64,000 nucleotides of DNA, taken from positions 4,555 through 68,554 of the forward strand of contig PLLJ01000021.1 in the NCBI GenBank assembly GCA_003140935.1. The letters run 5' to 3'. The DNA is from Candidatus Omnitrophota bacterium (GTDB lineage Bacteria > Omnitrophota > Omnitrophia > Omnitrophales > Aquincolibacteriaceae). The position numbers and the translations under genes were made by a program. The notes under the pieces were generated by a model. It ran no database searches. It worked only from the letters and a program-made list of their open reading frames with translations, and was not told the origin of the DNA. Below, piece by piece: positions 460 to 64,000 of the stretch. The stretch's first letter is position 1, and each line of letters starts with the position of its first letter.

Positions 460-3400
460 ATGAATTGTCTCAAGCAGTTACAAAGATTTTTTTCTGGAAT
501 AATCGCCATCATTTTCTTTGTGACCAACACGCTCGTTCCGGTTTCCATCGCCCACGCTGCGAACGTAGAATCTCCGGCATTTATTTCTTCATTCACGATC
601 CCCGCGGAATTCGGCAAGGTTACGGACAGGATCAAAGGCTCTGAAGCAGGTCCCCTTCTTATCCACATCCAGGAAGCCCACGCCAATTACGATGCGCAAA
701 AGAACATCAAAAATATTCTGGAGTATCTTTCTAAGAATTACGGTATCCGGTTGGTGCTTCTGGAAGGCGCGGGAAACAAGCTTGACGCTACATTGTTCAA
801 ATTTTTCCCCCGGGAACCCGAACTCCAGCAAACAGTGAACGAGAAGCTCATGCAAGCGGGTGAGCTTACGGGTGCCGAGCTCTTCCTGATATCCTCTCCG
901 CAAGGTGCGGCAGAGGGATGGGGCGTTGAGAAAGCGGAAGCGTACGCTCAGGACCGGGAGGCTTTCAAACGGGTTTTTGAAGGACGCGAGCTTGCGCAGG
1001 ACTTTTCAGAAACCTTTTACCGCCAATGGCAGAAATGCGCCTCGCTCCTACTGAGCAAGCCTCTCAAAGAATTCTTGACCCGCGAAACAGCTTTCGAAGA
1101 GGGGCGCTTGCCGCTTGCGGATTGGATGGTTTCCCTGAAAATGGCGGCAGCCCGCGATCTCAGGCTCGATCTGGACAATGTCTTGGAACAAAAGGATTGG
1201 CCGGTGCTTGTCCGTTATTTCCGGTTAAAGACGATCGACCCCAGGATCGACACCGCTCAAGTGGAAAAAGAGAAAACGGTATTTCTCAAGGATCTTACGC
1301 AACGCGCAACAGGTGACGTACAACAAAATACAAAAGATAAGGACGTTGAACGCCGCGCGTTGAACGTCGTGCGCGAAGTGGAGCAGGTTTTTGAGCAAGC
1401 AAAAAAGAATGATCGCCCCTCTTACAAAACCCGTTTTGTTTTTGAAAAATTACTCGATCAGCTCCCCAAAGACTTTTCGTTCGACGCCTATCCCAACCTC
1501 AGGCTCTACCTTCAGCAGATCATTCTCTTAAGCGAGATACAGGGCGACACCTTGCAGAATGAGATTAAAAATCTAACCGAAAAACTGACCGCTCGCCTTA
1601 TCAAGACTAAGCAAGACCGGCGGTTTGCCGGGATCCTGCATGACTTCCGCCTTGTCAAAAAACTTTTTGAACTCGAACTGAGCCGCAGCGAATACCAAAC
1701 CATTCTTTCCGACAAGATCACGCTCGAGAAACTTCTCCAGGAACTTCAGGCGCTAGACCCGGAAGCGAAGGTCCTCAACAAGAGTCCTTCGCCCAAGCTT
1801 TTGCGCCTCAAGTCTCTCTACGGGACGGCAATCCGTTTTTACGAAGGAGCGATCGAACGCGAAAATTGGATGATGAAGCAAGCGCTTGCGCGCATGCAGG
1901 AGCGTAAGCAGACGAAGGCTGTGCTAATCACCGGCGGTTTTCACACGGAAGGTCTCAAAGAAAAAGTCCTCAGCGCCGGCAGTTCCTACGTCGAGATCAC
2001 GCCGCGCATTGGCGAGGTCACCGCAGATTCCAGGAAGAACTACCTGACAGCCCTCTTAGGCAAAAAGACCGTTGAGACCTCTCAGATCGCAGCGCTGGTG
2101 CGAAGCGATATGTATTTTTTGAAAGAGGTTTTTCCGAAAGATTGGCGCAGAAAATTAGCAGAGCTCGTAACAAACCTTCGCGGCAAATTGCGACAAGTCG
2201 TCAGTCCTGAGAGAGCTCAGGAGGCGGTTAGCGATTTTCTTGCAGCGGCTAGAGGTGTTCCGGCTTTGCAGCCGGCCGGTGCCCGTTCAGAAATGCGGGA
2301 ACCCGGGCAAGACGTTGTCAGCCCAAAGCCGGACCTCCCGGGGCTGACGCTGGGGATCCCGTTGGATATCGGGTCCGAAAGACGGGGGACAGGGATCGTC
2401 GAATTCGGCGCACTCAAAAAAGCGGCAAGGTTGCTTGAGCCTCTTAAGGAGAGTTTCGGGATGGGCCGTGTCTATCCGTATAACAGTCTTTTTGCCACGG
2501 GCGACATCTCGTCGGGCGTTCATCAGGTTCCGAACAAAGGAGAGCATTTTTTAATTTCCAAGAACAGAAAGACAACCGTGATGGTCCGGGGTTATGAGAC
2601 CAAAGGCCACGAACTGGGCGGGTTGACGCTTCGGGACGGGGCGAACAATTTTTCCATTCTTAGCATGCTGAAGCTCAACCCCCGGTTGTCCGACTCCAAC
2701 GCGGCCGAAGGAACCGCCGAGAAAACGGAAAGGGACGTTCGCGCTTTCAATAAAAAAGCCCACGGTCTCGGGATCAAAACCATGGCCAATTTTATTCCCT
2801 GGCTTGCACCCGACGCCATCGATGAAACGAATCTCGATTGGACGTTTTACGAAAAGCGGACCGCCGAGGAGAATGAGTATTTCCGCAGCCTTTCCGAGAA
2901 CGCGAAACAAAATTACATCAATAATCTTTTAAGGGAAAAAAACGGAGCCTTTTTCGCCCGGAGAATGGGGCAGGGGGACAAGGAAGAGGTCGTGCTGATC
3001 CGGCATTTTCCGGGAATGGGCGAAAATAACTATAACACCGATCAAGTCCTGCTCAATATTTTTTCTCCGGGAGTCCAGAACTACTATAAACGGTCGTTGC
3101 GCTACCTCAAGAAGCTCGGATTCGATGCGATCCGGGGCGATATGGGAAGCTATTTGCTTAAGAAGAATTTGTCTGGATTTCTTGCCGCAGCCGGTTTAGA
3201 TCCAGCAGCTTTTAAAGACAAAGATCCCCTTCGGGAGATCCTGAAAGACGCTTCGATGGAAATGGTTTTTGAAGCCTACGATCCGGGTGACCAGGAAGCC
3301 CTGATCGAAGCCGGGGAACCTTCTCCAGTCGCGGTCTACAATGACAGTTTCTTCAGGGCCCTGGCCGAATTTTCAGCGAATCCTTTTATGGTTGCCGACA

Positions 3401-6400: not shown

Positions 6401-9400
6401 TCATCGGCGGCCGGACCTTTGATTTGGACGAGTCCCATGACCGTTTCCTGTATATCCGGTTCCTGACGGAAGTACTGGGAGTCGAAGACCGTGTCGCGAC
6501 CCTCGAAGATTACACTTATTACGAAGCGCAGATCATTGCTCGAGGAGTTCAAGGTGCGGTGATGTTGTCGGACGAAGATCTGGAAGCTTCATCCACATTT
6601 ATGATGAAGGTCAAAGCGAATCGCGGAGAGGTGGTCGGGCCTTATGCCGGCAGTAATCCCGAAGTCTGGGACATTCGCGTCGTTAAAACGATCGGTGACG
6701 TTAAAACGATCGGTGAGAAGATCGAGGTTTTGAATGAAAAAGGCGAACCCAATACCAAGGTCATTACTCAAGACATTCTGCGTGAAAAGAATCGCACCGG
6801 GGAATGGGAAATCCGGGACGGCATTTTTGTCGCCTATGCGGACGAGGAACTGAGCCGGCAAGAAGGCGGGAAGAGACGTCCGTCCGCCCGAAGCCTGTTA
6901 GAGGCTTTGAAAAAGATGAAAAAACTTCGTTCGGATCCCGCAACACGGCGCGAGCGCATGTATGCCGCGATCTCGAACTCCTGGAAAGTGGACATGGTGA
7001 CCGGGCAGGCAATGGCTCACGCCTATTTGATCGAGAACATGCTTCGGGAAGAAGAAGAAAAAGAAGCGATGTTCGATTCTCTGCGATTCGAGTCTTCCGA
7101 TTATGCCGTTCCGATGAACGCTCACGATTTCGGGTGGAAGACCCGCCATCCGTTCGAAAGATATTCGGCCAAGGATTTTGGACTCTTCGGATTGTTCCGG
7201 TCTTTTCGCGACATGAAAACTTGGCAGGACAAGGGACCGTCGACCCGTGGGATCCAGGCCCTGGAAAGTCTAAGGCATCATGCTCAGTTCGGAGATATTT
7301 TCAAATACCTGCGAGAAGGGGTCCTGGTTCATCTTTCGCCGGGGCTGCAGCCTTTCAAGGACAAGATCGAAAGCCTGGCGGCAAAGGCTGAAACGGCAAG
7401 CGATAAAGAAGTCATCGCCCTCAATCTTGAGGCCATGGACCTGACGGAAATGCTTTTGGTCCGCATGGCCGGAGATTGGTTTGAGCGATACATGCGGGCC
7501 GATTCGTTTGATGAAGCGGAACCTTTAAGAAAAGAATTGGTCCAAGGCGTGGGGGCGGACTCCCAACCCTGGGCCGATTATATTGTACGTTATCTTGAAG
7601 GGCATCCGGATGCCCGCGCCTTAAGAACCCGCGAGAATAAGATCCGGTCTTTTGTCTTTGCCCCCGCAGGCCAACGGCCGGTCATGGTCAGTCTTAACAT
7701 GGGAGCTATCGCGCACCGTGAAAAAGACGCTTCTTTCGAAGGTCTAAAAGCGCGCACCCAAGTGATCATTGACAAGCAAGCCTTTCTCACGTTGACCGAA
7801 AATGCGACCGATGTAAAGTTCGTTCATCTTCGGGAACCGAAAAGGAAAAATGATTACGCGGTGCTGGAAAAAAAAGATTCGGTCGCAGAAGCCGAAATGG
7901 AAATCGGGGTTGGCATTCCGATGCCTCTGGGTATCGAAGTGATCGAATGGCGTCCAATGAAATTATCGGAACTTACCTCGATCCTGGCGGCAGTGGCGGC
8001 TGGTGAACGGGAACCTTTGGCGATTGATTCTCTGACGCAATTGATCCGCGAAACAGGAGCGGACAATGAATTGCCGTTGACAGCGATATTGATCGCGGTC
8101 GGGAAACAGGAGTCTTCCGCGATGGCTTCTTTCCGTCAATTGATCCGCGAGGCGAGAACGGATTATGAACCGCCGGAAGGGAGAACTCCTGCCGATCATC
8201 TTACAGAGCAGTTGGCGGTCCTTGCGGGTTTGGACCGGAAGAATGCCGCCACTCTTTTCGGGGAGAACTTAAAACCCTTGATGATGCTGATCGGTCTGCT
8301 CCGGCCGGACCTTTTAAAAACATCGCAAATTGCTTCATGGGACCGGGAATTTTTCAAAAAAGTCGAACGTGCCGTGGCCGATATCCAGACAACTTTCGGA
8401 GAAAGCCACGCGGCTGCCAAACAACATAACTATTATGTGATTGACTCTTCTCATCACGGAGCACTTGTCCTTGCCCGAAAAGACGCCAAGGGTGATTCTT
8501 TTTTTGTGACATTGCAATTCGCCGCTAATGATCGTGATGCCGCAAGTGATGGAAAGATCACTACCCAAGTTTCTTCAGAAGGCCTTGCACGAATGATCGA
8601 TCAAGGTGCTTTTTATCGGGTTATTGATATGCTGACGGGGGAAGACTACGGAATTCGCGGGGATCTTCTGCATGGATGGATCATTCGCACGCCTTTTGTC
8701 GGTGGTGCTGACCGCGTTCAAATGCTTCATCTTGAGAAAATAACGCCCGCGTCACGTTCCGAAATGCGCCTGGCGCCGCTTGCACATTCTCTGGAACAGG
8801 GGATCACCGCGATCACCGCACTGCAAGCGAGGATCGCTTCAAAGGCCGTTCTCAAGGAATCCGGAAAAAGGAATCTGAATCACCAGCCGAATTACTTCGC
8901 AGGGGTTTATTCTTACGGGGACATTTTCTGGGGCGGCCTTTTCGCGTGGGGGAGCGTTGCCGCTTTTTCAAACAACGGATCGAAGGCAAACCTGATGTCA
9001 GAGACGCCGGCCGTTTCTTTACCTTCCGAGAACATCATGATCTCTCGCGCACTGAACATTCCAAGAAATAGGGGAGCGAGTCTGGGCAGTCCGAAAACGG
9101 CCTTTTCGGTCGTCCGCTCGGAAACAAGGGATCATCCCGAGCTGAAGCCGACCCTGACGGCGCTGATGGAACGGTCCGCCGAGTTTCGTGCTGCGACCCA
9201 GGCGTTCAAGGACGCGTCCCCTGTAGGGATCTCGAACGACGTCTATTGGAAAGAACCGAAATTCGCGGTCGGATTCGAACGTATGAAGGCCCGGGACTGG
9301 AATGCAACACCTCACAGGGAAGTGATCCAAAAGTTCCTCTCGCTTGTGGGACGGAAAGACAAGCCGGTGCTGGACGTCGGGATGGGCAGCGGGAGAGCCC

Positions 9401-52144: not shown

Positions 52145-52894
52145 CTATTTTTTGGCTTTTCCCTGATTTGCCACCGCATCCATGGCGGCTTTGATCTTTT
52201 CGGGGTCGCCCAGATAATAATGCTTTATGGGCTTGAGGTTCTCATCGAGCTCGTAAACAAGCGGGATGCCGGTCGGGATGTTCATGCCGAGGATCTCCTG
52301 CTCTGAGATATTGTCCAAATATTTCACAAGCGCGCGGAGGCTGTTGCCATGCGCCGCAATGAGCACCCTTTTCCCGGCCCGGATCATTGGGGAGACGACA
52401 TCATGCCAGAAGGGAAGGACGCGGGCGACCGTGTCTTTGAGGCATTCCGTGAGCGGAAGATCACTTTTCCTGAAACTCTGGTAACGCGGGTCCTTGGCCG
52501 GATTCCGGGGATCTGTTTTCTCAAGCGCCGGCGGCGGGACGTCATAACTCCGGCGCCAGATCTTGACCTGTTCTTCGCCGTACTTGGCCGCGGTCTCGGA
52601 TTTATTCAGCCCTTGCAGGGAACCATAATGGCGTTCGTTCAACCGCCAGTCCCGGATGACTGGGATCCACATAAGATCCATCTGATCGAGGACGATCCAG
52701 AGCGTCCGGATGGCGCGTTTCAGGACCGAAGTGAACGCGATATCGAAAACGTAGCCTTCTTTTTTAAGGAGCTGACCGCCGTCTTTGGCTTCCGCGAGGC
52801 CTTTTTCCGATAGATCCACGTCATACCAGCCGGTGAACCGGTTCTCTTTATTCCAGATGCTTTCTCCATGACGGATCAAAACGAGTTTATGCAT
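52145..52894 (-). CDS. gpmA: 2,3-bisphosphoglycerate-dependent phosphoglycerate mutase
   Basis: Start at [23 protein letters not shown] (catalytic His in RHGES), 249 aa. Confidence 0.9.
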
Positions 52895-53149
52895 AATAGC
52901 TATCTCCGGGTAACAGGGTTGATAAAGATTGAACAACAGGGGGGGAATATATCAGCTAGAAGGCCGAAAGCAAAGGTCAAAAACACCCATTGACCCTAAG
53001 ACGGTAATCTCTATAATTGGGGCTTCCAGAAGTGGTTTTTTTACTCTTTAACAGGTTATTCCCCTATCCTAAAGGACTGCGGGCAATGGCTTGTTCATGA
53101 ATCATGGAAAGTGACCGGCATATCGGTCACATGTTTTTTAAAAGATCAT

Positions 53150-53225
53150 TCCCCTGTAGCTCAGCTGGTAGAGCATGCGGCTGTTAACCGCAGTGTCCCT
53201 GGTTCGATCCCAGGCGGGGGAGCCA
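53150..53225 (+). tRNA. tRNA-Asn (anticodon GTT)
   Basis: Cloverleaf readable by eye: acceptor TCCCCTG/CGGGGGA, D-arm GCTC-AGCTGGTA-GAGC, anticodon arm TGCGG-CTGTTAA-CCGCA (GTT), T-arm CCTGG-TTCGATC-CCAGG, discriminator G plus CCA. Confidence 0.85.
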
Positions 53226-54803
53226 TTCCTTAACTTCCGGCGCACCAGCGCCGGAAGGGTTAGTCGTAGGTGGAAATTGCCCTTTTTGAGCTTCGTGCTC
53301 GAAGAGGGCAATTTCTATTTCTGAAGGTGTCCACGTTACCCGTTCCACAAACAAAGGCAGCAATTCCTTCATCTCCGCAGGATCAGCCGCTTCGTAGATC
53401 TGGCTGAATTTTGTCAGGGATTCATACATGATCCGGGCATTCATGGTCTGTTGCTGGATCTGCCCGATCTCAAAGTCAATATTCTGGATATCTTTCCCGA
53501 TCTGGTCTTTCTGGTCCTCAAGCTCACGAAGCTCTTCCGTGATCGATCTATTGATCTTGAGATCCGAATGGGAGGAGATGTTGTGCAGGATGTTCTTGAT
53601 CTTGCCTTTGATCCCGGTGAGCTTGATCTCCTGATGTTTCCTGTCTTTCTTTAATCCGACAAGACTGGATCCGGTATCCTTATTAGCTTCGTCTACTATC
53701 TTCTGAACCCTCTGTTTGTCGGTGCTCATCTTTTTGATCTCGCTTAATACAGCATTTTCCAGTTGGATCGCAGGCGCATACTTCATCTTGCAGGCAGATT
53801 TCCCGCTATTGGCATTGCGCGTACACTGATAGTAGTAGCAAAGTCCGTTTCTTCCGGTGCAGTACTTGGTAGACATGTAGTTTCCGCACCAGCCGCACTT
53901 AAGAAGCCCCTGGAGGAGGAACACATGCTTGACCTTCCGCTTGGGGTTGGTCCTTTTGGGAGCCTGTAGCTGGATCTTCCGGTTCACGTCGTGCCACAGC
54001 TCTTGGGTGACGATCGGAGGGTGCTGGCCGTTGTAAACTTTTTCGAGTTGCTTGATCTCCCCTAGATAAAGAGGATTGCTCAGGATATGCAGGACATTCT
54101 GGTTATAAAATGAGGAACCGCCTTTTTTAGAGTTCTTCCTTTTGGAGACGTATTCTTTTGTGCGATAACCATGCTCGTTGAGGAACTCCACGACCTTAAG
54201 GACGGAGCCCTTCTCCAGATATTTGTTAAAGATCAGGTTGACGAACTTCGCTTCCTGTTTATTTACGACAAGTTTTTTGTCGACAAGGTCATAGCCCAGC
54301 ACGTGTCCGCCATTCCAGAGCCCCTGCTGAGCCCGCCAAAGAAGCTTGTCCTTCGTTCGCTTGGAGGTCTGCTCTCGCTCCAGCTCAGCCCAGACAAGTG
54401 TCATCTTAAGCATTGCCTGCCCCATGGGAGTGGAGGTGTCGAAACCTTCCTCAAGCGAGATGAAATCGGCGTTGTGCCTTTTGAAGGTATCGCTCAGCTT
54501 GTAGAAATCAATGAGAGAGCGGGTGATGCGATCGATCTTGGTGCAGAGGACCGTGTTGATCCTGCCGTCTTTCACATCAGAGAGAAGTTCTTGCAGAGCG
54601 GGTCTGTCAGTATTCTTCCCGGACTTGCCTTCTTCACGGTAGACGCGGACCAGCTTCCATTTTGCGGAATCGTCGCTTCCCGGAACTTCACGGAATTTGA
54701 CGTACTGCTTGAGCCTGTCCGTTTGTGTATCAAGGGATCCGTCGCGTAATTCCGCCTGGCGCTCCGTAGAGACTCTGACATATAAACCGCACAGCTTGGC
54801 CAT
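53184..54803 (-). CDS. Large serine recombinase (resolvase/invertase N-terminal domain plus recombinase and Zn-ribbon/coiled-coil C-terminal regions); probable island integrase
   Basis: N-terminal LCGLYVRVSTERQ (catalytic Ser in the resolvase motif), 539 aa. The 3' end of the gene overlaps the last ~40 nt of tRNA-Asn. Confidence 0.85.
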   Translation of the reverse strand: MAKLCGLYVRVSTERQAELRDGSLDTQTDRLKQYVKFREVPGSDDSAKWKLVRVYREEGKSGKNTDRPALQELLSDVKDGRINTVLCTKIDRITRSLIDFYKLSDTFKRHNADFISLEEGFDTSTPMGQAMLKMTLVWAELEREQTSKRTKDKLLWRAQQGLWNGGHVLGYDLVDKKLVVNKQEAKFVNLIFNKYLEKGSVLKVVEFLNEHGYRTKEYVSKRKNSKKGGSSFYNQNVLHILSNPLYLGEIKQLEKVYNGQHPPIVTQELWHDVNRKIQLQAPKRTNPKRKVKHVFLLQGLLKCGWCGNYMSTKYCTGRNGLCYYYQCTRNANSGKSACKMKYAPAIQLENAVLSEIKKMSTDKQRVQKIVDEANKDTGSSLVGLKKDRKHQEIKLTGIKGKIKNILHNISSHSDLKINRSITEELRELEDQKDQIGKDIQNIDFEIGQIQQQTMNARIMYESLTKFSQIYEAADPAEMKELLPLFVERVTWTPSEIEIALFEHEAQKGQFPPTTNPSGAGAPEVKEWLPRLGSNQGHCG

Positions 54804-55036
54804 TTTTCCTCCGGGGTTGAATAATGGATCTCGATGCGCTATACTTAGCTAAGCAACAGTTATTATAAAGCATCGATAAGGAGAAATCAATCAAATGAGG
54901 AAGTTCACGTTTTGCCCCGCAATCTGCTACACTACAGCTATGATTTTATTCATGTTTGACTATCCTGTATGGACATGTTAGATTATATTTAAACCAAACA
55001 TCGAATTAAGCATATTAAAAACGTAGGATGACAACT

Positions 55037-55813
55037 ATGGATAGTCAAAAAGCAAGTAAGATAAACCAACTCATGAAAGCATGGCCGAAAGGGACTGTAG
55101 CCGTTTATAGCTGGCTGGCCTCCCAGGGGGTTTACCGCCAATTGGCCGGCAGTTATATCAAGGGATCCTGGATCGACCGGATCGGGCGCGGAGCTTTCAA
55201 GCGGGCGGGTGAAAAAGCGGACTGGACCGGCGCGCTCTATGCCATGCAGACACAACTGAAACTCTCGGTGCACGCGGCCGGAAAAACGGCGCTTGGGTTA
55301 CAAGGGTATGCGCACTATGTGCCCATGGGCGCCGGTCAGACGGTCGTTCTTTTCGGGAGTCCCACTGAGAAACTTCCGGAGTGGTTCCGGCGTTATGACT
55401 GGAAAATGAAACCGAGATACACCGCGACAGGATTCCTGGACGTCAAAAAGAGCACGGGCCTTGCCGATCACGCGCTGGGTGATTATTCGATAAAGATCTC
55501 TTCACCCGAGCGGGCGCTACTCGAGGTCTGCTACGATGTGCCTGACGAAGAATCCTATGAGGAAGCCGGTCTCTTGATGGAAGGCCTGACGACATTGCGT
55601 TCCGAGCTGGTCCGGGAGCTTCTAAAAGAGTGCCGCTCCGTCAAGGCAAAGCGCCTTTTCATGCATCTGGCTGAAAAACAGGGTCATGCCTGGGTGAAGA
55701 AGCTCGATCTCAAGAGGGTCGACTTCGGCAGTGGTAAGCGCATGATCGGCAAGCACGGAACCTATGACGCGAAATACAAGATCGTGGTGCCTGTGGCAAA
55801 AGAGGGAACATGA
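55037..55813 (+). CDS. AbiEi family antitoxin-like protein (type IV TA / abortive infection)
   Basis: The N-terminal region resembles the AbiEi_4 winged-helix domain. Immediately upstream of, and overlapping (ATGA), an AbiEii-type nucleotidyltransferase. The ATG at 55028 is an alternative start. Confidence 0.65.
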   Translation: MDSQKASKINQLMKAWPKGTVAVYSWLASQGVYRQLAGSYIKGSWIDRIGRGAFKRAGEKADWTGALYAMQTQLKLSVHAAGKTALGLQGYAHYVPMGAGQTVVLFGSPTEKLPEWFRRYDWKMKPRYTATGFLDVKKSTGLADHALGDYSIKISSPERALLEVCYDVPDEESYEEAGLLMEGLTTLRSELVRELLKECRSVKAKRLFMHLAEKQGHAWVKKLDLKRVDFGSGKRMIGKHGTYDAKYKIVVPVAKEGT

Positions 55814-56730
55814 AGAACAGCCTCTATTACAAACAAGCCGATCTTCTGATCCGCATCCTTCCGCATGTCGCGGAAGAACCCGATTTTGCCCTGCACGGCG
55901 GCACAGCCATTAATTTTTTCGTTCGCGGTCTCCCAAGACTGTCCGTGGATATCGATCTTACCTACCTTCCCGTGGAATCCCGGGAGGATACACTCCGTCA
56001 TATCGGGGAGAAACTCCGGATCATCGCGCAAAAGATCAGAAAGACCATCTCCGGAGTCAGGGTCGAAGAGAAGATCGACAAAACAAGCGGTGCCGTTACC
56101 AAGCTTTTTGCGAACCAGCAGGGAGCCCTTGTGAAGATCGAACCCAATCTGATCATCCGGGGAGCCGTTTCTGCCTGCGAGGAAAGGGAACTTTCAAAAG
56201 AAGCGAGAGACTTCTTCGAGAAATCCGTGAGCGTAAAGATGCTTTCTTTCCAGGACCTTTACGGCAGCAAGATATGCGCGGCATTGGACCGGCAGCATTC
56301 CCGGGATTTTTTCGATGTGAAGATACTCCTGGAGAACGAGGGGATCACCGACGCGGTCCGGAAGTCTTTTCTGGTCTATCTGATCAGCCATAACCGGCCC
56401 ATGTATGAAGTCCTGGCGCCTCGTCTGAAAGACCTCCGGCCTGTTTTTGAGAAAGAATTCTTGGGGATGACCCGGATCGCCGTGACCTGCGAAGAGCTCG
56501 AACGCGTCCGGAAAGAACTGATCGCGAAGGTCCGGAGCATGCTCACCCCGGATGAACGCGAATTTTTAATGTCCTTCAAGGAAAGAACCCCGAAATGGCA
56601 GCTTCTTGGGGTGGAGGGCGCCGAGCGGTTGCCCGCCGTACGCTGGAAGCTGGCCAATCTCGAAAAAATCGAGCGCGGAAAACATAAGGTCACCGTGGCG
56701 CGGCTAAAAAAAGCTTTAGAACTTTCCTGA
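55810..56730 (+). CDS. AbiEii/AbiGii family nucleotidyltransferase toxin (DUF1814)
   Basis: ALHGGTAINFF...RLSVDIDLTY is the nucleotidyltransferase GS...DxD-type motif of AbiEii. 306 aa. Confidence 0.75.
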   Translation: MKNSLYYKQADLLIRILPHVAEEPDFALHGGTAINFFVRGLPRLSVDIDLTYLPVESREDTLRHIGEKLRIIAQKIRKTISGVRVEEKIDKTSGAVTKLFANQQGALVKIEPNLIIRGAVSACEERELSKEARDFFEKSVSVKMLSFQDLYGSKICAALDRQHSRDFFDVKILLENEGITDAVRKSFLVYLISHNRPMYEVLAPRLKDLRPVFEKEFLGMTRIAVTCEELERVRKELIAKVRSMLTPDEREFLMSFKERTPKWQLLGVEGAERLPAVRWKLANLEKIERGKHKVTVARLKKALELS

Positions 56731-56900
56731 AATATCAACGGCGCAATCGGCGATCTTCCCTTCAAAAGTGGTCCTTTTTTCTATCCGTTCGCGATTAGAG
56801 AAATTTCTTAAAACTCTCCTCAAAGGGGTTAGAATACGCGCGTAGCGGCAGTGTGATAAGTAGCGGCCAACATGGAGACAATTAAAATAGGGAAGAGTGT

Positions 56901-57887
56901 ATGCAAGAACTAAAAAATAAACTAAATGAGATAGCTCAGCAGCTTAAAAAAGGAGTTTCACCTGCAAGAATGAGTGCGCGTGACATCCTGAAATTGCTTA
57001 ATTCTTCTCGACGGGGGAGCAATGTCAATTCTTTGGTAAGAAGCGCTTTGGAAAAAGCCGGTCTTCAAACTCAGCCTGATTTTGAATGGGCATATATTGA
57101 TGGTGCCATTAAATTCGTTGCAATTGGATCTGACGAGGATCGACAGGCTATAGCTACAACTTACCGAATTGACGGGCTGGGGTCGGCGCATCGCAAACCA
57201 GTTTCGATTAAGCCAGATAGTTCGCTTAATGAGGCGACCACTATAATGATGGCTAATAATTTTTCCCAATTACCTGTCATGACTACTGAACGCGAAGTAA
57301 AGGGTGCTATCAGTTGGAAATCAATTGGGTGTCGGTTGTCATTAGGTAAAAAGTGTACGGTAGTGCGAGAATGCATGGATTCCGCTAAAATAATAGGAAT
57401 GGAATCCTCCCTTTTCGAGGCAATAAAAATAATAGCAGAACATGATTATGTGTTAGTTCAATCGCAAGAGAAAATTATATGTGGCATAGTTACGGCAAGT
57501 GATCTAAGCCAACAATTTAGTGATTTGGCCGAACCTTTCGTGTTGATAGGCGAATGCGAGAATTTCATACGCCGTCTTATTCATGGAAAGTTCTGCGTGG
57601 AGGAGCTAGATGGAGCAAAGAATCCCAATGAGCTGAGTCGCGTAGTGGAGGGGGTAGCGGATTTGACATTTGGAGAATATGTGCGATTGCTTGAAGATGA
57701 AAAACGTTGGGACAAATTGAAGCTCTCTGTAGATCGGTGCGAATTTATCAAATGGCTGAACAGGGTTCGAAACATTAGGAATGATGTAATGCATTTCGAT
57801 CCGCAGGGCGCCGACCCTGTAGCTATGCAAGCATTAAGAGAGTTCGTGCATTTCTTACAGGAGTTACGTCGTCTTGTTGTGCTGTAA
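56901..57887 (+). CDS. CBS-pair domain protein with C-terminal HEPN-like (Rx4-6H) region
   Basis: Two CBS motifs (KPDSSLNEATTIMMANNFSQLPVM..., ...IIGMESSLFEAIKIIAEHDYVLVQSQEKIICGIVTASDL). C-terminal NRVRNIRNDVMHFDP contains an R-x4-H HEPN-type motif. Confidence 0.5.
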   Translation: MQELKNKLNEIAQQLKKGVSPARMSARDILKLLNSSRRGSNVNSLVRSALEKAGLQTQPDFEWAYIDGAIKFVAIGSDEDRQAIATTYRIDGLGSAHRKPVSIKPDSSLNEATTIMMANNFSQLPVMTTEREVKGAISWKSIGCRLSLGKKCTVVRECMDSAKIIGMESSLFEAIKIIAEHDYVLVQSQEKIICGIVTASDLSQQFSDLAEPFVLIGECENFIRRLIHGKFCVEELDGAKNPNELSRVVEGVADLTFGEYVRLLEDEKRWDKLKLSVDRCEFIKWLNRVRNIRNDVMHFDPQGADPVAMQALREFVHFLQELRRLVVL

Positions 57888-57980
57888 ATAAGGGGATGCT
57901 AAGTGCTTGCCCGCCGCCGATTTTTGGCAGGGGGGGGCACCGTCCGGGTTACGTGAAATTAAAATAAAGGCAAATATGTT

Positions 57981-59417
57981 ATGAAAAAATATGAGAAGCT
58001 CGATCAGTTTTTCGAACGGGTAAAAAATTTAGGTTTTTGGCAAAGAATCTTCAGTTGGCGGCTCGTGCAAAGTTTGAGCTACGAGGCTTTTGAGGAGTAC
58101 AAAAATCTAATCCATTTGGTAGTGAGTAGTGAGGAACAGCTAGCTACTTCTTCCAATAAGATCGACTTGCTAAATAACGACAATTCCCATATCAAATCCG
58201 AGTCCGTGAAACTGCAAAGCTCACTGGATATTTCGAATACAAAACTTACTTCTGTAGAGACAGCACTTTCCGCCCATAAAGCCGCTTTAGCTTCCAGAGA
58301 AGAGACTATAAAACAGTCAGATAAAAAAATAATCGAACAGCAAGCAGAATTAAAATCATTGAAGGAAAAACACACATCCGTAGAAACCATGCTTTCCAGC
58401 GCTGAGGCTACTTTGGCCTCAAGAGAGGAAAATATAAAACAGTCCGAGAAAAAAGCAGCCGAGCAACAAGCCGAATTAAAATCCTCAAAAGAAAATGCGA
58501 GATCTCTACAAGAAGAGCTCGCTGTTCTCAAGGAAGAAAACGCAATTTTTAAAAGTACAGAAAATGATAGAAATCAAAGTTACGAAACCAAGATCGCAAC
58601 GCTTGGCGCAATCACATCGCAAGTTCAAAAAGAGCGCGAAGTGGAGAAACAGAAAAATCTGGAAAAAGAAATTCAGCGCCTTACTGCAATGAAAGAAACA
58701 TGGGCAAGACATCAGGCGAGTGTTCAAGAAGCCATTAAAATGATATGTCAGAAGCATACAATCGAGTACATAGACCAAGTTCCTTTTAAAGGGAAGCCCG
58801 ATAATACCATTCAAATAAGTGACGAATACATTATTTTTGATGCGAAAAGCCCTTCCTCCGACGATCTAAAAAATTTTCCAATCTATATTAAAACTCAAAC
58901 AGAATCAGTAAAAAAATACATTAAAGAAGCGAATGTGCGTAAAGATATATTTCTTGTGATCCCTTCTAATGCAGTTGACGTCATTGATAACTTTAGCTTC
59001 AACATGGCTGACTATAATGTGTACGTTGTAACGATAGATGTACTAGAGCCCTTAATCCTTGCTCTTAGAAAAATCGAAGACTATGAATTTGTTGAACAAT
59101 TAACCCCGGAAGATCGAGAAAATATTTGCAGAATAATCGGAAAATTCGCACATATTACTAAACGAAAAATACAAGTTGATTTTTTCTTCACAAAAGAATT
59201 GATGGGTGTTCTTAAGAAATGTGAAGCAAATTTGCCTTCAGACATTATGGGAAAAGTGGTGGAGTATGAAAAATCTGAAAAAATAAATCCTCCTCGCGAA
59301 GCACGGTCAAAGCAAATTCTAACAAAAGAGTTGGAAGTAGAAAGCGAAACCATTCAATCTAGTTTTAAAGGTCTTCCACTCAACGAGAACGATGAGACTG
59401 TCCCAAGCCACCCTTAA
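57981..59417 (+). CDS. RmuC-like coiled-coil protein (DNA recombination protein RmuC family)
   Basis: A long N-terminal coiled coil with a ~42-aa tandem repeat. The C-terminal region has the RmuC-like motif KPDNTIQISDEYIIFDAKS. Confidence 0.55.
   Translation: MKKYEKLDQFFERVKNLGFWQRIFSWRLVQSLSYEAFEEYKNLIHLVVSSEEQLATSSNKIDLLNNDNSHIKSESVKLQSSLDISNTKLTSVETALSAHKAALASREETIKQSDKKIIEQQAELKSLKEKHTSVETMLSSAEATLASREENIKQSEKKAAEQQAELKSSKENARSLQEELAVLKEENAIFKSTENDRNQSYETKIATLGAITSQVQKEREVEKQKNLEKEIQRLTAMKETWARHQASVQEAIKMICQKHTIEYIDQVPFKGKPDNTIQISDEYIIFDAKSPSSDDLKNFPIYIKTQTESVKKYIKEANVRKDIFLVIPSNAVDVIDNFSFNMADYNVYVVTIDVLEPLILALRKIEDYEFVEQLTPEDRENICRIIGKFAHITKRKIQVDFFFTKELMGVLKKCEANLPSDIMGKVVEYEKSEKINPPREARSKQILTKELEVESETIQSSFKGLPLNENDETVPSHP
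58245..58500 (+). repeat. Two tandem ~126-bp imperfect direct repeats inside the RmuC-like gene (coding 42-aa coiled-coil units)
   Basis: ...TSVETALSAHKAALASREETIKQSDKKIIEQQAELKSLKEK / ...TSVETMLSSAEATLASREENIKQSEKKAAEQQAELKSSKEN, with a matching DNA-level repeat. Confidence 0.7.
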
Positions 59418-59597
59418 ACCACACACAGATGACAGAAACGGTTCTGGCGGGGACAGTTTGGTCGTGGATATGTCCCGCTGAGAACCGATCCAATTTGCAG
59501 GCATGTGCGGAGATTTGGAAGGATTGGCTGGTATGGCTTTTACCGCAAATAAAAATATTAAAATTACCAAATTCTAATCAGGCTTCAAAGGAATAAA

Positions 59598-59813
59598 ATG
59601 CGCCGTGATCCCGTTAGTTCGTCCGACATTGAATCAATCGGTTACGATGAAGGGACTCAAACTCTAGAAATTGAATTTAAAAGAGGGAGTGCTTATCAAT
59701 ATTTTGCTGTTCCGCGAGAGGTGTATGAAGCAATGATGGCTAGTTCATCATGCGGAAAATTTTTTTATTCAAACATCAAAGACAATTATTCAAGTTCAAA
59801 GGTTTCTAGATGA
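59598..59813 (+). CDS. KTSC domain protein
   Basis: IESIGYDEGTQTLEIEFKRGSAYQYFAVPREVYEAMMASSSCGKFFYSNIKDNY matches the KTSC domain consensus. The stop overlaps the start of the OLD-family gene (ATGA). Confidence 0.7.
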   Translation: MRRDPVSSSDIESIGYDEGTQTLEIEFKRGSAYQYFAVPREVYEAMMASSSCGKFFYSNIKDNYSSSKVSR

Positions 59814-61561
59814 AAATAATATCTTTTGCCGTCGATAATTTCCGCGGAATATCCGGGGGGTTAGAACGAAATATCATTTACTTTGATAATTCCAACACAT
59901 TATTAATCTTTGGCCAAAACAATACCGGCAAGTCAGCATTCCTGCATGCCTACGAGTATTTCTTCTATAATACCCATCCCTCGTTAGAAGATTTTTATCT
60001 GCAAGATCCCAATAATAAGATAAGTTTTGAATTGGAAGTCGAATTATCTGATGCAGACAAGGGCATACTTGAGCAAAAGAGTAAGAAAGCAAGCTACATG
60101 TTTCAAAATTATTTATCGAAAGATGGAAGATTAAAGATGCAGAAAATATGGGGTTCGGAAGACGTCAAAACGAAATCTAAAACTTATAAGGAAACCAATA
60201 GAACTTTTAGCCCCAAAACCTCTGATTGGGATGACAAATATTATGGTGGGATAGGGCTACATGAGGTTTTTCAAGAAAGCTTGCCCAAACCAATTCATAT
60301 AAAGGCTATGCCCACCGAGGAAGAGACTGAAAAAATCGTGAATCAAATTTTAGCGATTAGGGCCGAAGAGTTTTTAAAAGATGCCGCGAATCAGAAATAC
60401 AAGGATGCGATAGAGGCCATTAAAGAATTGAAAGAAAAGATGTATGACCCAGAAAGAATTCAACAATACAAGACTCACGTTAACGAGCAATTTCAAAAGC
60501 TATTTTCGGATACACAAATTGAATTAGATCCAAAAGAGAAAAAAAATAATTTGACCATGAGTATTGTAGGCAGAGACTATGGAGTCAAATTTTATAGACT
60601 TAACAGCGACAAAGGTATTAACGAAGCCATTCCAAGTTCATATCATAAAATAGGACATGGAGCAATTCGAACGGCAATATTTACTTTATTTCTCATGAGG
60701 GATATTGCTGAAGGATATGAGCGCAAAATGGGGCGGAAGAATTATTTAGTTCTTTTTGAGGAGCCGGAGCTTTTTTTACACCCAAAACTAATAAAAATAC
60801 TTCGAAGTTTAATCTATCAAATAAGTCAAGATGACCTGCCTTTTCAGATTCTATGCGCTTCTCACTCTCCACAGATGATAGATATTACCAAGTCAAAGTC
60901 ATCGCTGATTCGTATGACCAAGACAGACGGGAAGACCAGATTGTTTCAAATTGACGAAACGATATTAATGGATAAGGCTAAGATGGAAGTGAAGCACGAG
61001 CTTTATGAAGCTTTGCGGTTTAATCCGTACATTTGCGAATCATTTTATGCTGACGAAATAATATTAGTTGAAGGAGATTCCGAAGCGGTAATTTTGCGTG
61101 CATTTTTGCAAACAGCTAAAACTAGCAAGGATATTTTTGTACTGAACTGCGGCACTGTAAATAATATTCCATTTTTTCAGAAAATCTTTTCAAAATTTAA
61201 TATAAAATATCATGTGTTTTGCGATACAGATGGTCGTTTTAATGGAAAATTCGACCAGAATAAACAACCAATTTTTGAAAAATTTATACAGGGAAAAATA
61301 TATGAACAAATTAATGAAGATGTCAAAAAGACTGGCTACCGAGTAGGAATTTTAAGAGTGCATGATAAAAATTTTGAAGAAGCTCATCGGTTAATTGGCT
61401 CGAATTTGAAATATCCTTTTTCTGATGATGAGATTAAACAAGATGGTAAGCCATTTTGTGCCAATAGATATTGGGATGATGTATTGAAACCTAATCTGGG
61501 GCGTTCTGAGATTGATAATGTCCCGATAATTAAGTATTTAAAAGAAATGTTGGCTCATTGA
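59810..61561 (+). CDS. OLD family ATP-dependent endonuclease (ABC-type ATPase + TOPRIM)
   Basis: N-terminal FAVDNFRGISG...LLIFGQNNTGKS (Walker A), ...LFEEPELFLHP (Walker B/D-loop region). C-terminal TOPRIM IILVEGDSEAVILRAF with a downstream VFCDTDG (DxD). 583 aa. Confidence 0.8.
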   Translation: MKIISFAVDNFRGISGGLERNIIYFDNSNTLLIFGQNNTGKSAFLHAYEYFFYNTHPSLEDFYLQDPNNKISFELEVELSDADKGILEQKSKKASYMFQNYLSKDGRLKMQKIWGSEDVKTKSKTYKETNRTFSPKTSDWDDKYYGGIGLHEVFQESLPKPIHIKAMPTEEETEKIVNQILAIRAEEFLKDAANQKYKDAIEAIKELKEKMYDPERIQQYKTHVNEQFQKLFSDTQIELDPKEKKNNLTMSIVGRDYGVKFYRLNSDKGINEAIPSSYHKIGHGAIRTAIFTLFLMRDIAEGYERKMGRKNYLVLFEEPELFLHPKLIKILRSLIYQISQDDLPFQILCASHSPQMIDITKSKSSLIRMTKTDGKTRLFQIDETILMDKAKMEVKHELYEALRFNPYICESFYADEIILVEGDSEAVILRAFLQTAKTSKDIFVLNCGTVNNIPFFQKIFSKFNIKYHVFCDTDGRFNGKFDQNKQPIFEKFIQGKIYEQINEDVKKTGYRVGILRVHDKNFEEAHRLIGSNLKYPFSDDEIKQDGKPFCANRYWDDVLKPNLGRSEIDNVPIIKYLKEMLAH

Positions 61562-61579
61562 TCGCGCCTGTTTCATTGT

Positions 61580-62326
61580 TTGGTCAACTATTGTATGGGC
61601 ATTCTTAGTTATAAGATTGAACGATTAGAAAAAGTAATAGCGTGGGGTCGCTATCTTCATTGGTGTGATCTTCATCGTAAACGGTTTCAAAAATGGATAG
61701 AGATCCCTCATGATGTTTCGGATGCCATAGATGGTTGGCATTTTGTCGCTCTTGCCTCGCAGTGGTATGCGAGTCTTTGGGTGGTGATAGAAGGCTGGGC
61801 TGAGGCCAAATTAAAAGATCAAGCAATTGATGAGCTTTTGGAAAAAACAAAGAACAATAATTCTCTCTTAAAAAGGTATCGTAATGGGATTTATCATTTT
61901 CAACCGTCTTTATTAGAACCACGGCTTGTAGATTTTTTAAAAGAATCAGAAAAAAATGTTATGTGGATTCATGCTATGCATTTTGAATTTCTGAGGTTTT
62001 TCTGGAATTATGTGCATAGCATCCCAGGAAATAAAAATAAGCAGGAGTTCCATGAGCAAGTCATTGCAATACTTGGATGGATGCCCACGGATATTCCTGA
62101 TGCTTATCAGTGGGATGTTGAGCAATTATGTAATGAGGCAAACACATTAGTTTACTCTTCAGATGATGCGTCTTCTACGGATTCAAAGGAGCTTCTTTCT
62201 GCCGCATCTGATGCCTGCGTACAAGTCGAGAAAGGAGCTGAGCGATATAGAGAGTGGATTCAAGATTTAATAGACGCAATTAAAACCAATAAGACGGTTA
62301 ATCATATCAGCAACATTAGACCATGA
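61580..62326 (+). CDS. Hypothetical protein (248 aa), candidate partner of the OLD-family nuclease
   Basis: Begins 19 nt after the OLD gene stop on the same strand. No recognisable motif. Trp/His-rich helical protein. Confidence 0.5.
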   Translation: MVNYCMGILSYKIERLEKVIAWGRYLHWCDLHRKRFQKWIEIPHDVSDAIDGWHFVALASQWYASLWVVIEGWAEAKLKDQAIDELLEKTKNNNSLLKRYRNGIYHFQPSLLEPRLVDFLKESEKNVMWIHAMHFEFLRFFWNYVHSIPGNKNKQEFHEQVIAILGWMPTDIPDAYQWDVEQLCNEANTLVYSSDDASSTDSKELLSAASDACVQVEKGAERYREWIQDLIDAIKTNKTVNHISNIRP

Positions 62327-62442
62327 GACTATCAGAAAACGAAAAAAGAGATGCGGTGAAGTTGCTTCAAGAAGGCAAACCCCTGCCTGAGAAGTACCGT
62401 TTTCTTTTGTTTCAGGATGACCGGGAAGGTGAGCTTGGATAA
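62323..62442 (+). CDS. Possible 39-aa small ORF translationally coupled (ATGA) to the preceding gene
   Basis: ATG at 62323 overlaps the TGA of the 248-aa gene. Encodes MRLSENEKRDAVKLLQEGKPLPEKYRFLLFQDDREGELG. Not in the supplied track because it is under 60 aa. Confidence 0.25.
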   Translation: MRLSENEKRDAVKLLQEGKPLPEKYRFLLFQDDREGELG

Positions 62443-62611
62443 CCGGACGGCGTCCAATGAATGGGGAGGGGTAAGTCCGTTGAATGTACCAAACCCCAAT
62501 GGTTTGGTGCGGCTTTGGCGGGAGCCCGATGCTTCTGTTCGATCCGTGTGTCAGAAATAGCCATCACTTTTGCACGCAGTATCTTTGTGATAGTTTAAGA
62601 GCTGGAACGTC

Positions 62612-63295
62612 ATGGATAAAAAAAACCTTAGCGATTTCATCAAACATATTATATTCCTAAGTTCGGAGCTTGGGATAGTTTTAACCAAAACGCCTCTTAT
62701 AAAACTTCTCTATCTAATTGATGTTGAGTACTATCGTGCTACCGGAGAAAAATTAACTAACATCGATTGGATTTTTTATAAATATGGTCCCTATGCTTTT
62801 GAGTTAGAAGGAATTTTAACTGGCATGGGTCTCTCTGAAGAAATAGAAAGCACGACTTTTTCTTCTCCCCAAGGGAAAGGAGTTGCTTTCAGATCATCTC
62901 ATGGCGTTAATTTTCCGCTCAAAGATCCCGTCGCTCGCGGAATTGCTCAAGATATAGTTCGGAATTGGACAGATAAAGAGTTGAATGAATTGCTTAACTA
63001 TGTTTATTTTTACACTGAACCCATGAAATATGCAAAGTGTCGAGGAGAGAAGTTGGATTTTTCAAAAATTAATAGGGAACGAGAAAAAATATATGAAATA
63101 AAATTGAATCAAAATAAATTGGATGATTTAAACGCGAAATTGCGTGCTTTAGGTAATGCGCCAAAAATCAAAGAAAAGATGAAGGCGTTCATTAACTATG
63201 GCGTAAGAAACACATACTATTGGCCAGAGGATGATATTAATCTAAGCGGTAACGTTCTCATTGATCCTTCATGCGGTGAGGACAATGATGAGTAA
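62612..63295 (+). CDS. Panacea-domain (DUF4065, SocA-like) putative antitoxin
   Basis: KLLYLIDVEYYRATGEKLTNIDWIFYKYGPY fits the Panacea/DUF4065 pattern (KLxKLLY...G...F..W..GPV). 227 aa. Confidence 0.6.
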   Translation: MDKKNLSDFIKHIIFLSSELGIVLTKTPLIKLLYLIDVEYYRATGEKLTNIDWIFYKYGPYAFELEGILTGMGLSEEIESTTFSSPQGKGVAFRSSHGVNFPLKDPVARGIAQDIVRNWTDKELNELLNYVYFYTEPMKYAKCRGEKLDFSKINREREKIYEIKLNQNKLDDLNAKLRALGNAPKIKEKMKAFINYGVRNTYYWPEDDINLSGNVLIDPSCGEDNDE

Positions 63296-64000
63296 AAAAG
63301 GATTAAAGCAGATATTTCCAGCTAATTTTTATTCCGAAATTGATCATGCGCATGATTTTTACGTTGGGCAGATTTGCTTTGCACACACAGTGCGGCCGAA
63401 CCGAGTTCCTACCTTTCTTTCACCAGTAAAACAGGCGGAAGTAGATGGCGGGGAAGATCTCTTTAAACTGATAAGTAGTCAAGGCGGTGTTCCAAAATCC
63501 CACCTCCCAATACATAAATTTAAACTAGAAAATGACGAATTTTTTTATGTTCAGCGTGGGAAAATACGTCCCGTTGTTATTTTGGCGAGAGCCTCAGAGA
63601 AAAATTGGATTCAAGGCAAAATAAAGGGCGCTGTGTATTTATGCACCCCCATTTATTCGATAAGACCGGATCAGGGCCAAGATTTTGTTGTTCGTGTTCA
63701 AACGTATCAAATGGCGAACCTTTTTTACTTGCCAGAGTCGCCCAAGGGGATCGAAGAAGAAGGAATAGTTCGGTTCGAGATGTTGCAACCCGTCCACGAC
63801 TCTTGCCTGCAAAGGATGAAAAATATTAGTCGCAATTTCGTATGTCTTCACGAGGATGCTTTAAAATTATTTTTGAATCAGTATCATAAATTCACCACTG
63901 GAGTTCCCATCGATCCTTCAATAGATGAAATCGCCACTTTGTATGCACAAGATGTTTTAACCGAATTTGAAGTGATTAAGGCTCAAGAGAAGATGTCGGC
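63285..64000 (+). CDS. Unannotated ORF (at least 238 aa, runs off the window end) overlapping the Panacea gene by 11 nt; candidate cognate toxin
   Basis: From the ATGATG at 63285-63290 the +1 frame has no stop to position 64000. The predicted protein starts MMSKKGLKQIFPANFYSEIDHAHDFYVGQICFAH. It is absent from the track because no stop falls inside the window. Confidence 0.45.
   Translation, partial: MMSKKGLKQIFPANFYSEIDHAHDFYVGQICFAHTVRPNRVPTFLSPVKQAEVDGGEDLFKLISSQGGVPKSHLPIHKFKLENDEFFYVQRGKIRPVVILARASEKNWIQGKIKGAVYLCTPIYSIRPDQGQDFVVRVQTYQMANLFYLPESPKGIEEEGIVRFEMLQPVHDSCLQRMKNISRNFVCLHEDALKLFLNQYHKFTTGVPIDPSIDEIATLYAQDVLTEFEVIKAQEKMS

Follow-up and report, generated by a model that had tools for sequence, protein, structure and literature searches.

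An intact tRNA-Asn(GTT) gene and a convergent open reading frame of 539 aa, encoding a large serine recombinase (LSR), overlap by 42 nt in the 64,000-nt stretch of Omnitrophota DNA analyzed here (the window). The tRNA is the only one called in the window by ARAGORN, and it scored 63 bits against Rfam RF00005, for which the gathering score is 29. The recombinase matched the Resolvase (PF00239, E=1.6e-37), Recombinase (PF07508, E=2.3e-17) and Zn_ribbon_recom (PF13408, E=1e-12) domains, and Y8, R10, S12, R67, R92 and R95 are invariant in 49 homologs. In the AlphaFold2 model of a homolog, P0006, long helices at residues 375-452 follow the zinc ribbon. The recombinase stop codon TAA is the reverse complement of TTA in the tRNA anticodon loop. 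The features of the locus and of the adjoining cargo are collected in the table.

Features of the tRNA-Asn locus and the adjoining island, in window positions. L001 is a contig identical to the window over 11,389 nt that extends it by 9.3 kb; L104 is a 13.5-kb contig of a 77%-identical element with no tRNA.
Position	Strand	Feature	Evidence
52145..52894	-	Host flank: gpmA (phosphoglycerate mutase)	Pfam; homologs named Omnitrophota, up to 95% identity
53150..53225	+	Intact tRNA-Asn(GTT); forms the B arm of attL, plus the element-supplied CCA	ARAGORN; Rfam RF00005
53184..54803	-	LSR ORF in its integrated-state form, 539 aa; Ser12 and Arg10 invariant in the family	Pfam; alignment of homologs; closest solved structures are the TP901-1 and A118 integrases
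53184..53218	-	Host-derived tRNA DNA encoding the last ~11 codons (..RLGSNQGHCG) and the stop codon of the integrated recombinase ORF	Sequence and translation; homologs end in the same kind of reverse-complement tRNA peptide
53210..53222	+	13-nt tRNA 3' segment CCAGGCGGGGGAG, recurring 19.7 kb downstream (L001 20279-20291) in front of a terminator; marks an older, distal tRNA fragment	Short-query blastn; sequence; terminator scan
53219..53222	.	GGAG, the only sequence common to attL, attR, attP and attB; acceptor end and discriminator base of the tRNA	blastn of L104 against L001; junctions placed in register
53223..53225	+	CCA supplied by the element	Recombinase-free tRNA-Asn genes of relatives (L100, L097) end in GGGGGAG followed by TTA and TTC, respectively
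53226..53257	+	P' arm of attP: spacer (TTCCTTAAC) and hairpin 1 (stem 53234-53243 paired with 53248-53257); encodes ..PSGAGAPEVKE of the recombinase	Fold; conserved, with compensatory changes, in L095 and L104
53273..53322	+	Hairpin 2 (arms 53273-53291 and 53297-53315) and T-rich tract; candidate intrinsic terminator for the tRNA, embedded in the codons EIEIALFEHEAQKGQF	Repeat search; fold z = -8.1; terminator-like hit; homologs keep a hairpin plus U tract with different arm sequences
54862..54890	-	Promoter-like site upstream of the recombinase gene (TTGATT-17-TATAAT)	Consensus scan only (L001 2251-2279)
55028..56730	+	AbiEi / AbiEii toxin-antitoxin (abortive infection) cargo	Pfam; PADLOC
56901..59417	+	Cargo: CBS-domain protein and 478-aa coiled-coil protein, both of unknown role	Pfam; weak JetC-like hit
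59598..62326	+	Cargo: KTSC-domain protein, OLD-family ATPase-TOPRIM nuclease, and a 243/248-aa partner protein	Pfam; PADLOC Old, 2.6e-61
62612..64000	+	Cargo: SocA/Panacea-domain antitoxin and the start of its 256-aa partner; island runs off the window end and continues to window-equivalent 71566	Pfam; gene table of L001

The overlap is not a matter of chance. Among 58 homologous loci with a complete ORF end, 38 have the ORF running 8-99 nt into a convergent tRNA 3' end, and four more run into a tRNA-Asn that ARAGORN missed because it carries a group I intron. This makes 42 of 58 loci from at least 9 phyla. In contrast, none of the roughly 10 distant Firmicutes LSR loci retrieved in the same scan has an adjacent tRNA. 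One could still argue that the recombinase is a resolvase or invertase unrelated to integration, whose ORF merely reads on until the first stop codon inside a neighboring tRNA. Indeed, the part of the tail beyond the crossover varies in length and sequence across the family and is thus probably not selected for itself. However, the protein has the full LSR architecture, an attP form exists, cargo differs between strains at the same tRNA, and no other integrase was found among the island genes screened. We therefore regard an incidental overlap as very unlikely.

An earlier note had read the overlap as an island integration junction, in which the element supplies a replacement tRNA 3' end, with the attL core expected inside 53184-53225, and had proposed to look for a direct repeat of the tRNA 3' segment beyond the window end. 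Our analyses support this interpretation. No repeat of the tRNA 3' segment was found within 52800-64000, in agreement with an island that runs off the window, and a 31-nt tRNA 3' pattern with up to 3 mismatches matched only the tRNA itself in L001. The ends could be placed with the help of L104, which is assembled in the attP configuration and aligns colinearly to both ends of the island, i.e., 3249-4668 to L001 2024->608 and 4665-5336 to L001 18955->18253. The alignment breaks at GGAG in both places, L001 608-611 at the tRNA and L001 18952-18955, the latter 7.56 kb past the window end. When placed in register, attL, attR, attP and a recombinase-free tRNA share only these 4 bp, as expected for an LSR, and strand exchange hence occurred within GGAG. 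A dyad-symmetry scan for the central dinucleotide, made with the distal P arm, was uninformative (10 of 24 matches at best). The reading of the note needs refinement on three points. The element replaces at most the last 4 nt of the tRNA and supplies CCA, a trailer and a candidate terminator, so that most of the 42-nt overlap is host DNA. Only GGAG is repeated at the true attR, whereas a 13-nt tRNA fragment lies 1.3 kb further out, beyond an acyltransferase cassette. Finally, the recombinase ORF spans attP and is split by integration.

We conclude with good confidence that the locus is the attL junction of an integrative element of about 18.35 kb, probably inserted by its own LSR at the extreme 3' end of the host tRNA-Asn gene. 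GC content falls from 0.52 to 0.35-0.45 inside the island, whose cargo also includes type III R-M. Relatives with 95% GpmA identity carry a 74%-identical recombinase with different cargo at the same tRNA, and recombinase-free tRNA-Asn genes of relatives lack an encoded CCA. No clean empty site with both flanks matching was found, however. Recombinase-free relatives (L100-L103) have a tRNA-Asn with a native trailer but still carry an orphan attR and HTH gene 6.9 kb from the tRNA, and the exact recombinase, GpmA and Panacea proteins were found only at occupied sites. Likewise, no read or contig shows the predicted attP (..GATAATCGCGGAGCCATTCC..; junction GATAATCGCGGAGCCATTCCTTAAC) or attB (GATCCCAGGCGGGGGAGTTTTTTGGGACAC) of this exact element. 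An exact-pattern scan of IMG/VR for the predicted attP gave 0 hits, as did one for the distal attR/attB sequence in a collection of metagenome contigs that seems to lack this organism; a scan for relatives of the flanking type III PKS also gave 0 confirmed hits there. L104 has no terminal overlap and could be a junction between tandem elements rather than an excised circle. A search for attR cores within the 10-kb flanks of 31 homologous loci found nothing convincing, so those islands are probably larger than 10 kb.

The distal 13-nt match raises the possibility that the island is a single 19.7-kb element bounded by this direct repeat, with the inner GGAG site as an internal relic and the distal joint AAAGTCCACCAGGCGGGGGAGCCATTCC as its excision product. 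The match is perfect (E=0.059 for a 240-nt query), ends exactly at the discriminator base and is followed directly by a strong terminator, and GC content remains low through the acyltransferase gene. In contrast, L104 joins the recombinase end to L001 18955 and not to 20291, and the P arm (GCGCTTGGTTTGRTAAY) next to the HTH gene is conserved in L104 and in the orphan attR of L100. Moreover, an in-frame ORF of 688 aa arises only with the inner junction, and a 13-bp core is atypical for a serine integrase. A single larger element thus appears improbable. Most likely the outer segment, consisting of terminator T1, the acyltransferase gene, the 13-nt fragment and terminator T2, is an older remnant in tandem, which makes the island composite with an unresolved history.

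Between the crossover and the cargo, the element-supplied CCA, trailer and two hairpins are all written inside the C-terminal codons of the recombinase. The hairpins fold with z = -8.1 in the window and with z = -4 to -8.7 in 12 homologs. RNAalifold on a MAFFT alignment of 17 trailers returned no consensus structure because the hairpins are not in register, and our statements hence rest on single-sequence folds. We infer that the hairpin plus U tract terminates tRNA transcription and insulates the recombinase gene from antisense read-through, although the terminator and promoter calls are consensus or folding predictions only.

The attR end abuts a ParB-type HTH gene that reads inward. In the attP arrangement, as seen in L104 and reconstructed for this element, the recombinase ORF continues in frame into this HTH domain to give 688 aa. 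Integration therefore splits the gene into a 539-aa catalytic recombinase and a separate HTH module. The reconstructed ORF is colinear with P0006 over residues 1-687 at 75.5% identity, and by our reading the linker codons differ mostly by synonymous changes, i.e., the linker shows protein-level conservation. For P0006, AlphaFold2 gave pLDDT below 60 only for residues 507-533, the stretch encoded by attP, followed by a confidently predicted C-terminal domain (pLDDT 85-96) that begins before the internal Met with a beta-hairpin and resembles ParB/Noc/KorB DNA-binding domains. The frame is open across the junction in four lineages of 39-75% identity (P0006, P0055, P0059, P0109), two homologs (P0253, P0272) lack the internal Met, and more distant LSRs of 637-743 aa also carry a C-terminal HTH. 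Nevertheless, the fusion might be only read-through of two adjacent genes whose products are always made separately, so that splitting would have no functional consequence. This remains a real possibility. In the locus L109 the recombinase stops and the HTH ORF starts 80 nt later, most HTH homologs have their own Met start and are called as proteins of 129-131 aa, and the att-encoded stretch is predicted to be disordered. That the splitting has a function, and that the HTH domain is made, fused or co-transcribed, mainly in the excised state, is an inference.

Like the phage-type large serine integrases phiC31, Bxb1, TP901-1 and A118/LI, the recombinase shows the order of catalytic domain with a serine nucleophile, Recombinase domain and zinc ribbon with a long coiled-coil insertion, a very short att core, and a gene next to its attP; PDB sequence matches are to the TP901-1 and A118 (4kis) integrases. 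However, identity to any annotated phage integrase is at most 32%, only 2 relatives were found in IMG/VR, the target is a tRNA 3' end rather than a protein-coding or intergenic site, attP lies inside the integrase ORF, and an extra ParB-type HTH domain or gene lies across attP. With tRNA-targeting islands of tyrosine integrases (Islander signature; P4-like and related) the element shares integration into a tRNA gene that is left functional, an intact tDNA at one end and a tDNA fragment at the other, an integrase gene next to the tRNA, accessory and defense cargo, and tandem remnants at the same tRNA. It differs in enzyme family, in an identity block of 4 bp instead of tens of bp, and in a site at the last bases of the acceptor stem and discriminator, so that almost no tRNA sequence is replaced. 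SSV-type "suicidal" tyrosine integrases of archaea likewise have attP inside their own ORF and are split by integration (PMC7253208), but into two inactive pseudogenes. Here the enzyme matches serine recombinase domains only, and the split removes only the C-terminal HTH module while the 539-aa catalytic and DNA-binding core stays intact.

tRNA genes are the classic targets of tyrosine integrases, and only these were known to target tDNAs when the Islander work appeared (PMC4383910). Our literature searches found no later report of a tRNA-targeting serine integrase, which does not prove that none has been described, and the LSR survey of Durrant et al. does not mention tRNA in its main text. 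The present finding points to a whole, so far uncharacterized clade of LSRs that target the last bases of tRNA genes, mostly tRNA-Asn but also His, Gln, Glu, Met and Asp, in Omnitrophota, Planctomycetota, Latescibacterota, Desulfobacterota, Myxococcota and other phyla. Serine integrases are the preferred genome-engineering integrases, and enzymes whose natural attB is a highly conserved tRNA 3' end could act as landing-pad-free tools in many organisms. The candidate tRNA terminator inside recombinase codons is a compact example of dual coding at an att site. We may speculate, although we consider it rather unlikely at present, that this clade uses its own gene structure as an integration-state switch. 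The excised element would make a full-length 688-aa recombinase with a C-terminal ParB-type DNA-binding domain, and the integrated element a truncated 539-aa enzyme with a tRNA-encoded tail and a separated or silent HTH module. The two isoforms would then bias the reaction toward integration or excision, or maintain the circular form, without a conventional separate directionality factor. Independent of this, an ORF that spans attP and is split by integration is a bacterial, serine-family parallel to the archaeal SSV-type integrases, and makes the question of how LSR directionality can be coupled to integration state directly testable.

ARAGORN found a single tRNA gene in the window, a tRNA-Asn(GTT), which the tRNA model of Rfam scored with 63 bits against a gathering score of 29. 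The convergent ORF on the opposite strand encodes 539 aa and matched Resolvase (E=1.6e-37), Recombinase (2.3e-17) and Zn_ribbon_recom (1e-12), which is the architecture of a large serine recombinase (LSR). Both features overlap by 42 nt. Read on the − strand, the 3' half of the tRNA is translated as W-LPRLGSNQGHCG-stop, and the TAA stop codon is the reverse complement of TTA in the anticodon loop. The overlap reported in the earlier note is exact, and its interpretation as an island integration junction is supported, although with three corrections. Only the last ≤4 nt of the tRNA are exchanged, the true attR shares only 4 nt with attL, and most of the overlap is host DNA.

Left of the tRNA, housekeeping genes of the host, an Omnitrophota bacterium, comprise gpmA, a HemN-like radical SAM gene and a hydrogenase/complex I-like operon. 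A 19-nt direct repeat (84% identity) furthermore copies the tRNA leader and the first 6 nt of the tRNA 90 nt upstream of the gene. A similar duplication appears in a relative (contig L100). The repeat may be a scar of an event on the 5' side. Right of the recombinase we found AbiEi/AbiEii, a CBS protein, a coiled-coil protein of 478 aa whose gene contains two tandem copies of a 126-nt unit (71% identity), KTSC plus an OLD-family nuclease, and a SocA/Panacea pair. GC content falls from about 0.52 to 0.35–0.40 from about position 57000 onward. Looking up the last complete protein of the window returned a contig, L001, which is identical to the window over 11,389 nt (window coordinate = L001 coordinate + 52611) and continues 9.3 kb further. 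This continuation holds a methyltransferase and a ResIII helicase (type III R-M-like), an RF-1-domain protein, a 271-aa protein, a small HTH_ParB gene and an acyltransferase, followed by a type III PKS gene at host-like GC.

Positions of the features described in the text
Feature	Sequence	Position	Strand
tRNA-Asn(GTT)	window	53150-53225	+
Large serine recombinase ORF (539 aa)	window	53184-54803	-
Left end of the element (GGAG)	window	53219/53222	
Right end of the element (GGAG)	window-equivalent	71563/71566	
13-nt tRNA 3' end	window	53210-53222	
13-nt copy of the tRNA 3' end	L001	20279-20291	
Hairpin 1 of the trailer	window	53234-53257	
Hairpin 2 of the trailer (arms)	window	53273-53291 and 53297-53315	
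HTH_ParB gene	L001	18470-18865	-
Segment between attR and the host PKS gene	L001	18956-20345 (window-equivalent 71567-72956)	
19-nt direct repeat	window	53047-53065 and 53137-53155	
Tandem copies of a 126-nt unit in the coiled-coil cargo gene	window	58241-58492	
Single 3744-aa ORF in the host part of the window	window	460-11694	+
Orphan attR and HTH_ParB gene, and tRNA-Asn 6.9 kb away, in relatives without the recombinase (also L101-L103)	L100	985-1520 and 8423-8497	
tRNA-Asn(GTT) with group I intron	L015	6340-6575	
tRNA-Asn(GTT) with group I intron	L019	7774-8023	
tRNA-Asn(GTT) with group I intron	L021	1901-2301	
tRNA-Asn(GTT) with group I intron	L022	11606-11822	
tRNA-Asn(GTT) with group I intron	L097	~9300-9870	

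The earlier note had predicted a downstream repeat of the tRNA 3' segment. Such a repeat exists as a perfect 13-nt copy of the tRNA 3' end, CCAGGCGGGGGAG, on L001, followed directly by a terminator. It is, however, not the recombinase's own attR. Four homologues of the recombinase (P0006, P0055, P0059 and P0109) are 602–691 aa long and continue past '..EVKKWL' into an HTH_ParB domain. The island's own HTH_ParB protein is a close homologue of the C-terminus of P0006, and the DNA just upstream of the island's HTH gene is homologous to the P0006 linker. Moreover, the contig that carries P0006 (L104, 13.5 kb, without a tRNA) aligned to L001 in two colinear pieces, with L104 3249-4668 matching L001 2024->608 and L104 4665-5336 matching L001 18955->18253. 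L104 is therefore a related element (77% nucleotide identity) in the attP configuration, which joins exactly the sequence right of the tRNA to the sequence upstream of the HTH gene. Finally, when placed in register, attL (window and L095), attR (L001 and L100), attP (L104) and a recombinase-free tRNA-Asn (L100) share only GGAG. From this it follows that the element spans about 18.35 kb and that the crossover lies within GGAG, the last acceptor and discriminator bases of the tRNA. A 4-bp core is what a serine integrase would give.

The segment between the inner attR and the 13-nt fragment, of so far unresolved origin, looks like an older remnant in tandem. It consists of terminator T1, an Acyl_transf_3 gene, the 13-nt fragment and a second, similar terminator T2, contains no integrase and looks like what is left of an earlier insertion at the same tRNA. 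Relatives without the recombinase (L100 and L101–L103) keep an orphan attR (P arm-GGAG-TTTTTTT) and the HTH_ParB gene 6.9 kb from tRNA-Asn, with a 2020-aa PATR autotransporter gene in between, which appears to be a decayed or rearranged element.

Recombinase-free tRNA-Asn genes of relatives (L100 and L097) end in ..GGGGGAG followed by TTA or TTC and a terminator, with no encoded CCA. In contrast, occupied sites read ..GGGGGAG-CCA followed by a conserved trailer. In the window, this trailer folds into two strong hairpins with an energy of −59.1 kcal/mol and z = −8.1. Hairpin 1 shows compensatory changes between the window, L095 and L104, i.e. CCGGCGC/GCGCCGG, CCAGCGC/GCGCTGG and CCAACGC/GCGTTGG, whereas hairpin 2 is followed by TATTTCT and was flagged as terminator-like. 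Twelve homologous trailers also fold far better than shuffled sequences (z = −4 to −8.7), and in most of them a hairpin is followed by a U-rich tract, although stem sequences differ between lineages, for example GCCCUUUUUGAGC, AUAGCCCUUUG and AUGGGCCUC. All of this lies inside the last ~45 codons of the recombinase, and hairpin 2 and its U tract encode EIEIALFEHEAQKGQF. We hence infer, from folding and consensus scans only, that the element carries a replacement terminator for the tRNA, which would also shield the convergent recombinase gene from antisense read-through.

In an alignment of 49 homologues (37–80% identity) we found tails such as WLPG-LDSNQRPSG and WLPR-EDSNLGHCG, which are translations of reverse-complemented tRNA 3' halves. 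A scan of one genome per species returned 80 loci, 58 of them with a complete ORF end. In 38 of these 58, the ORF overlaps a convergent tRNA 3' end by 8–99 nt (Asn 27, His 4, Gln 3, Glu 2, Met 1 and Asp 1), and the overlap is exactly 42 nt in 12 loci. Four more ORFs end in a tRNA-Asn that carries a group I intron in its anticodon loop. Such introns (Rfam RF00028, 51–95 bits) interrupt the tRNA-Asn(GTT) genes of several Omnitrophota and Planctomycetia relatives and cause them to be missed by ARAGORN; by our reading of the sequence, the intron appears to contain a small HNH-like ORF in L022 and L097. Hosts include Omnitrophota, Planctomycetota, Hydrogenedentota, Latescibacterota, Desulfobacterota, Myxococcota, KSB1, Nitrospirota and Acidobacteriota. 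In contrast, the distant Firmicutes LSR loci from the same scan have no adjacent tRNA. Small serine recombinases on Woesearchaeota contigs (L079–L088; 255 aa in the two loci checked, L080 and L085) often have a tRNA-Leu 1.5–4 kb downstream on the opposite strand, although it is unclear whether this reflects another tRNA-linked serine recombinase group.

A strain with 95% GpmA identity carries a 74%-identical recombinase with different cargo at the same tRNA-Asn. Defence cargo recurs in this element family, as an attP-form element found in four samples (L105–L108, the contigs of P0109, 18.8–22 kb, assigned to Patescibacteria in one source) has its 691-aa recombinase-HTH ORF flanked by CBASS-like E2/ThiF genes, MazE/PIN and an AAA_13 ATPase. 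Only two relatives were found in IMG/VR, and no annotated phage integrase exceeds 32% identity. The clade therefore consists mainly of non-phage islands in uncultured lineages.

Joining the two ends of the island in silico gives a 688-aa ORF that is colinear with P0006 over residues 1–687 at 75.5% identity, and three observations suggest that the linker is translated. By our reading of the sequences, the 31-codon linker differs from that of P0006 by about 10 synonymous and 7 mostly conservative changes, including two CGG-to-AGA arginine changes. AlphaFold2 modeled P0006 with a mean pLDDT of 88.9, where only residues 507–533, the stretch encoded by attP, fall below 60, and where the predicted C-terminal domain (540–688, pLDDT 85–96) starts with a beta-hairpin encoded upstream of the internal Met. 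In addition, two homologues of the stand-alone HTH module (P0253 and P0272) lack this internal Met. The C-terminal module alone resembles the DNA-binding domain of ParB, Noc, KorB and SopB, with 6s6h as the closest fit (rmsd 2.4 Å over 92 columns). Among the best 150 hits to P0006 in the library of 50%-identity cluster representatives, about a dozen are 637–743 aa long, and most of those we examined carry a C-terminal HTH-like motif. The fusion is not universal, however. In L109, another attP-form contig, the recombinase stops after WLPKFPVLLTAVR and a separate HTH ORF starts 80 nt downstream on the same strand. In the integrated state, the HTH ORF of this island can start at ATG (131 aa) or at an upstream TTG in the host flank (166 aa), and no sigma-70-like promoter was found upstream of it. 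Whether a fusion protein is made, and what it might do, is inference.

By its domains and its short core, the enzyme is a member of the large serine recombinases. It behaves, however, like a tRNA-targeting island integrase, a role that the literature assigns to tyrosine recombinases. Streptococcal surveys report serine integrases in protein-coding genes (PMC5357655), and the large LSR survey of Durrant et al. does not mention tRNA in its main text, although such islands might be listed without comment in databases such as TIGER. The location of att inside the integrase's own ORF parallels the archaeal SSV-type 'suicidal' tyrosine integrases (PMC7253208); here, however, the catalytic core survives the split.

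Beyond the junction described in the earlier note, our analysis points to a whole clade of tRNA-3'-end-targeting serine integrases, to an inferred tRNA terminator encoded within recombinase codons, and to an integrase ORF that spans attP and loses a ParB-type HTH domain on integration. What is firmly conserved is the layout, i.e. recombinase, then attP, then HTH in one orientation, and integration sends the two genes to opposite ends of the island.
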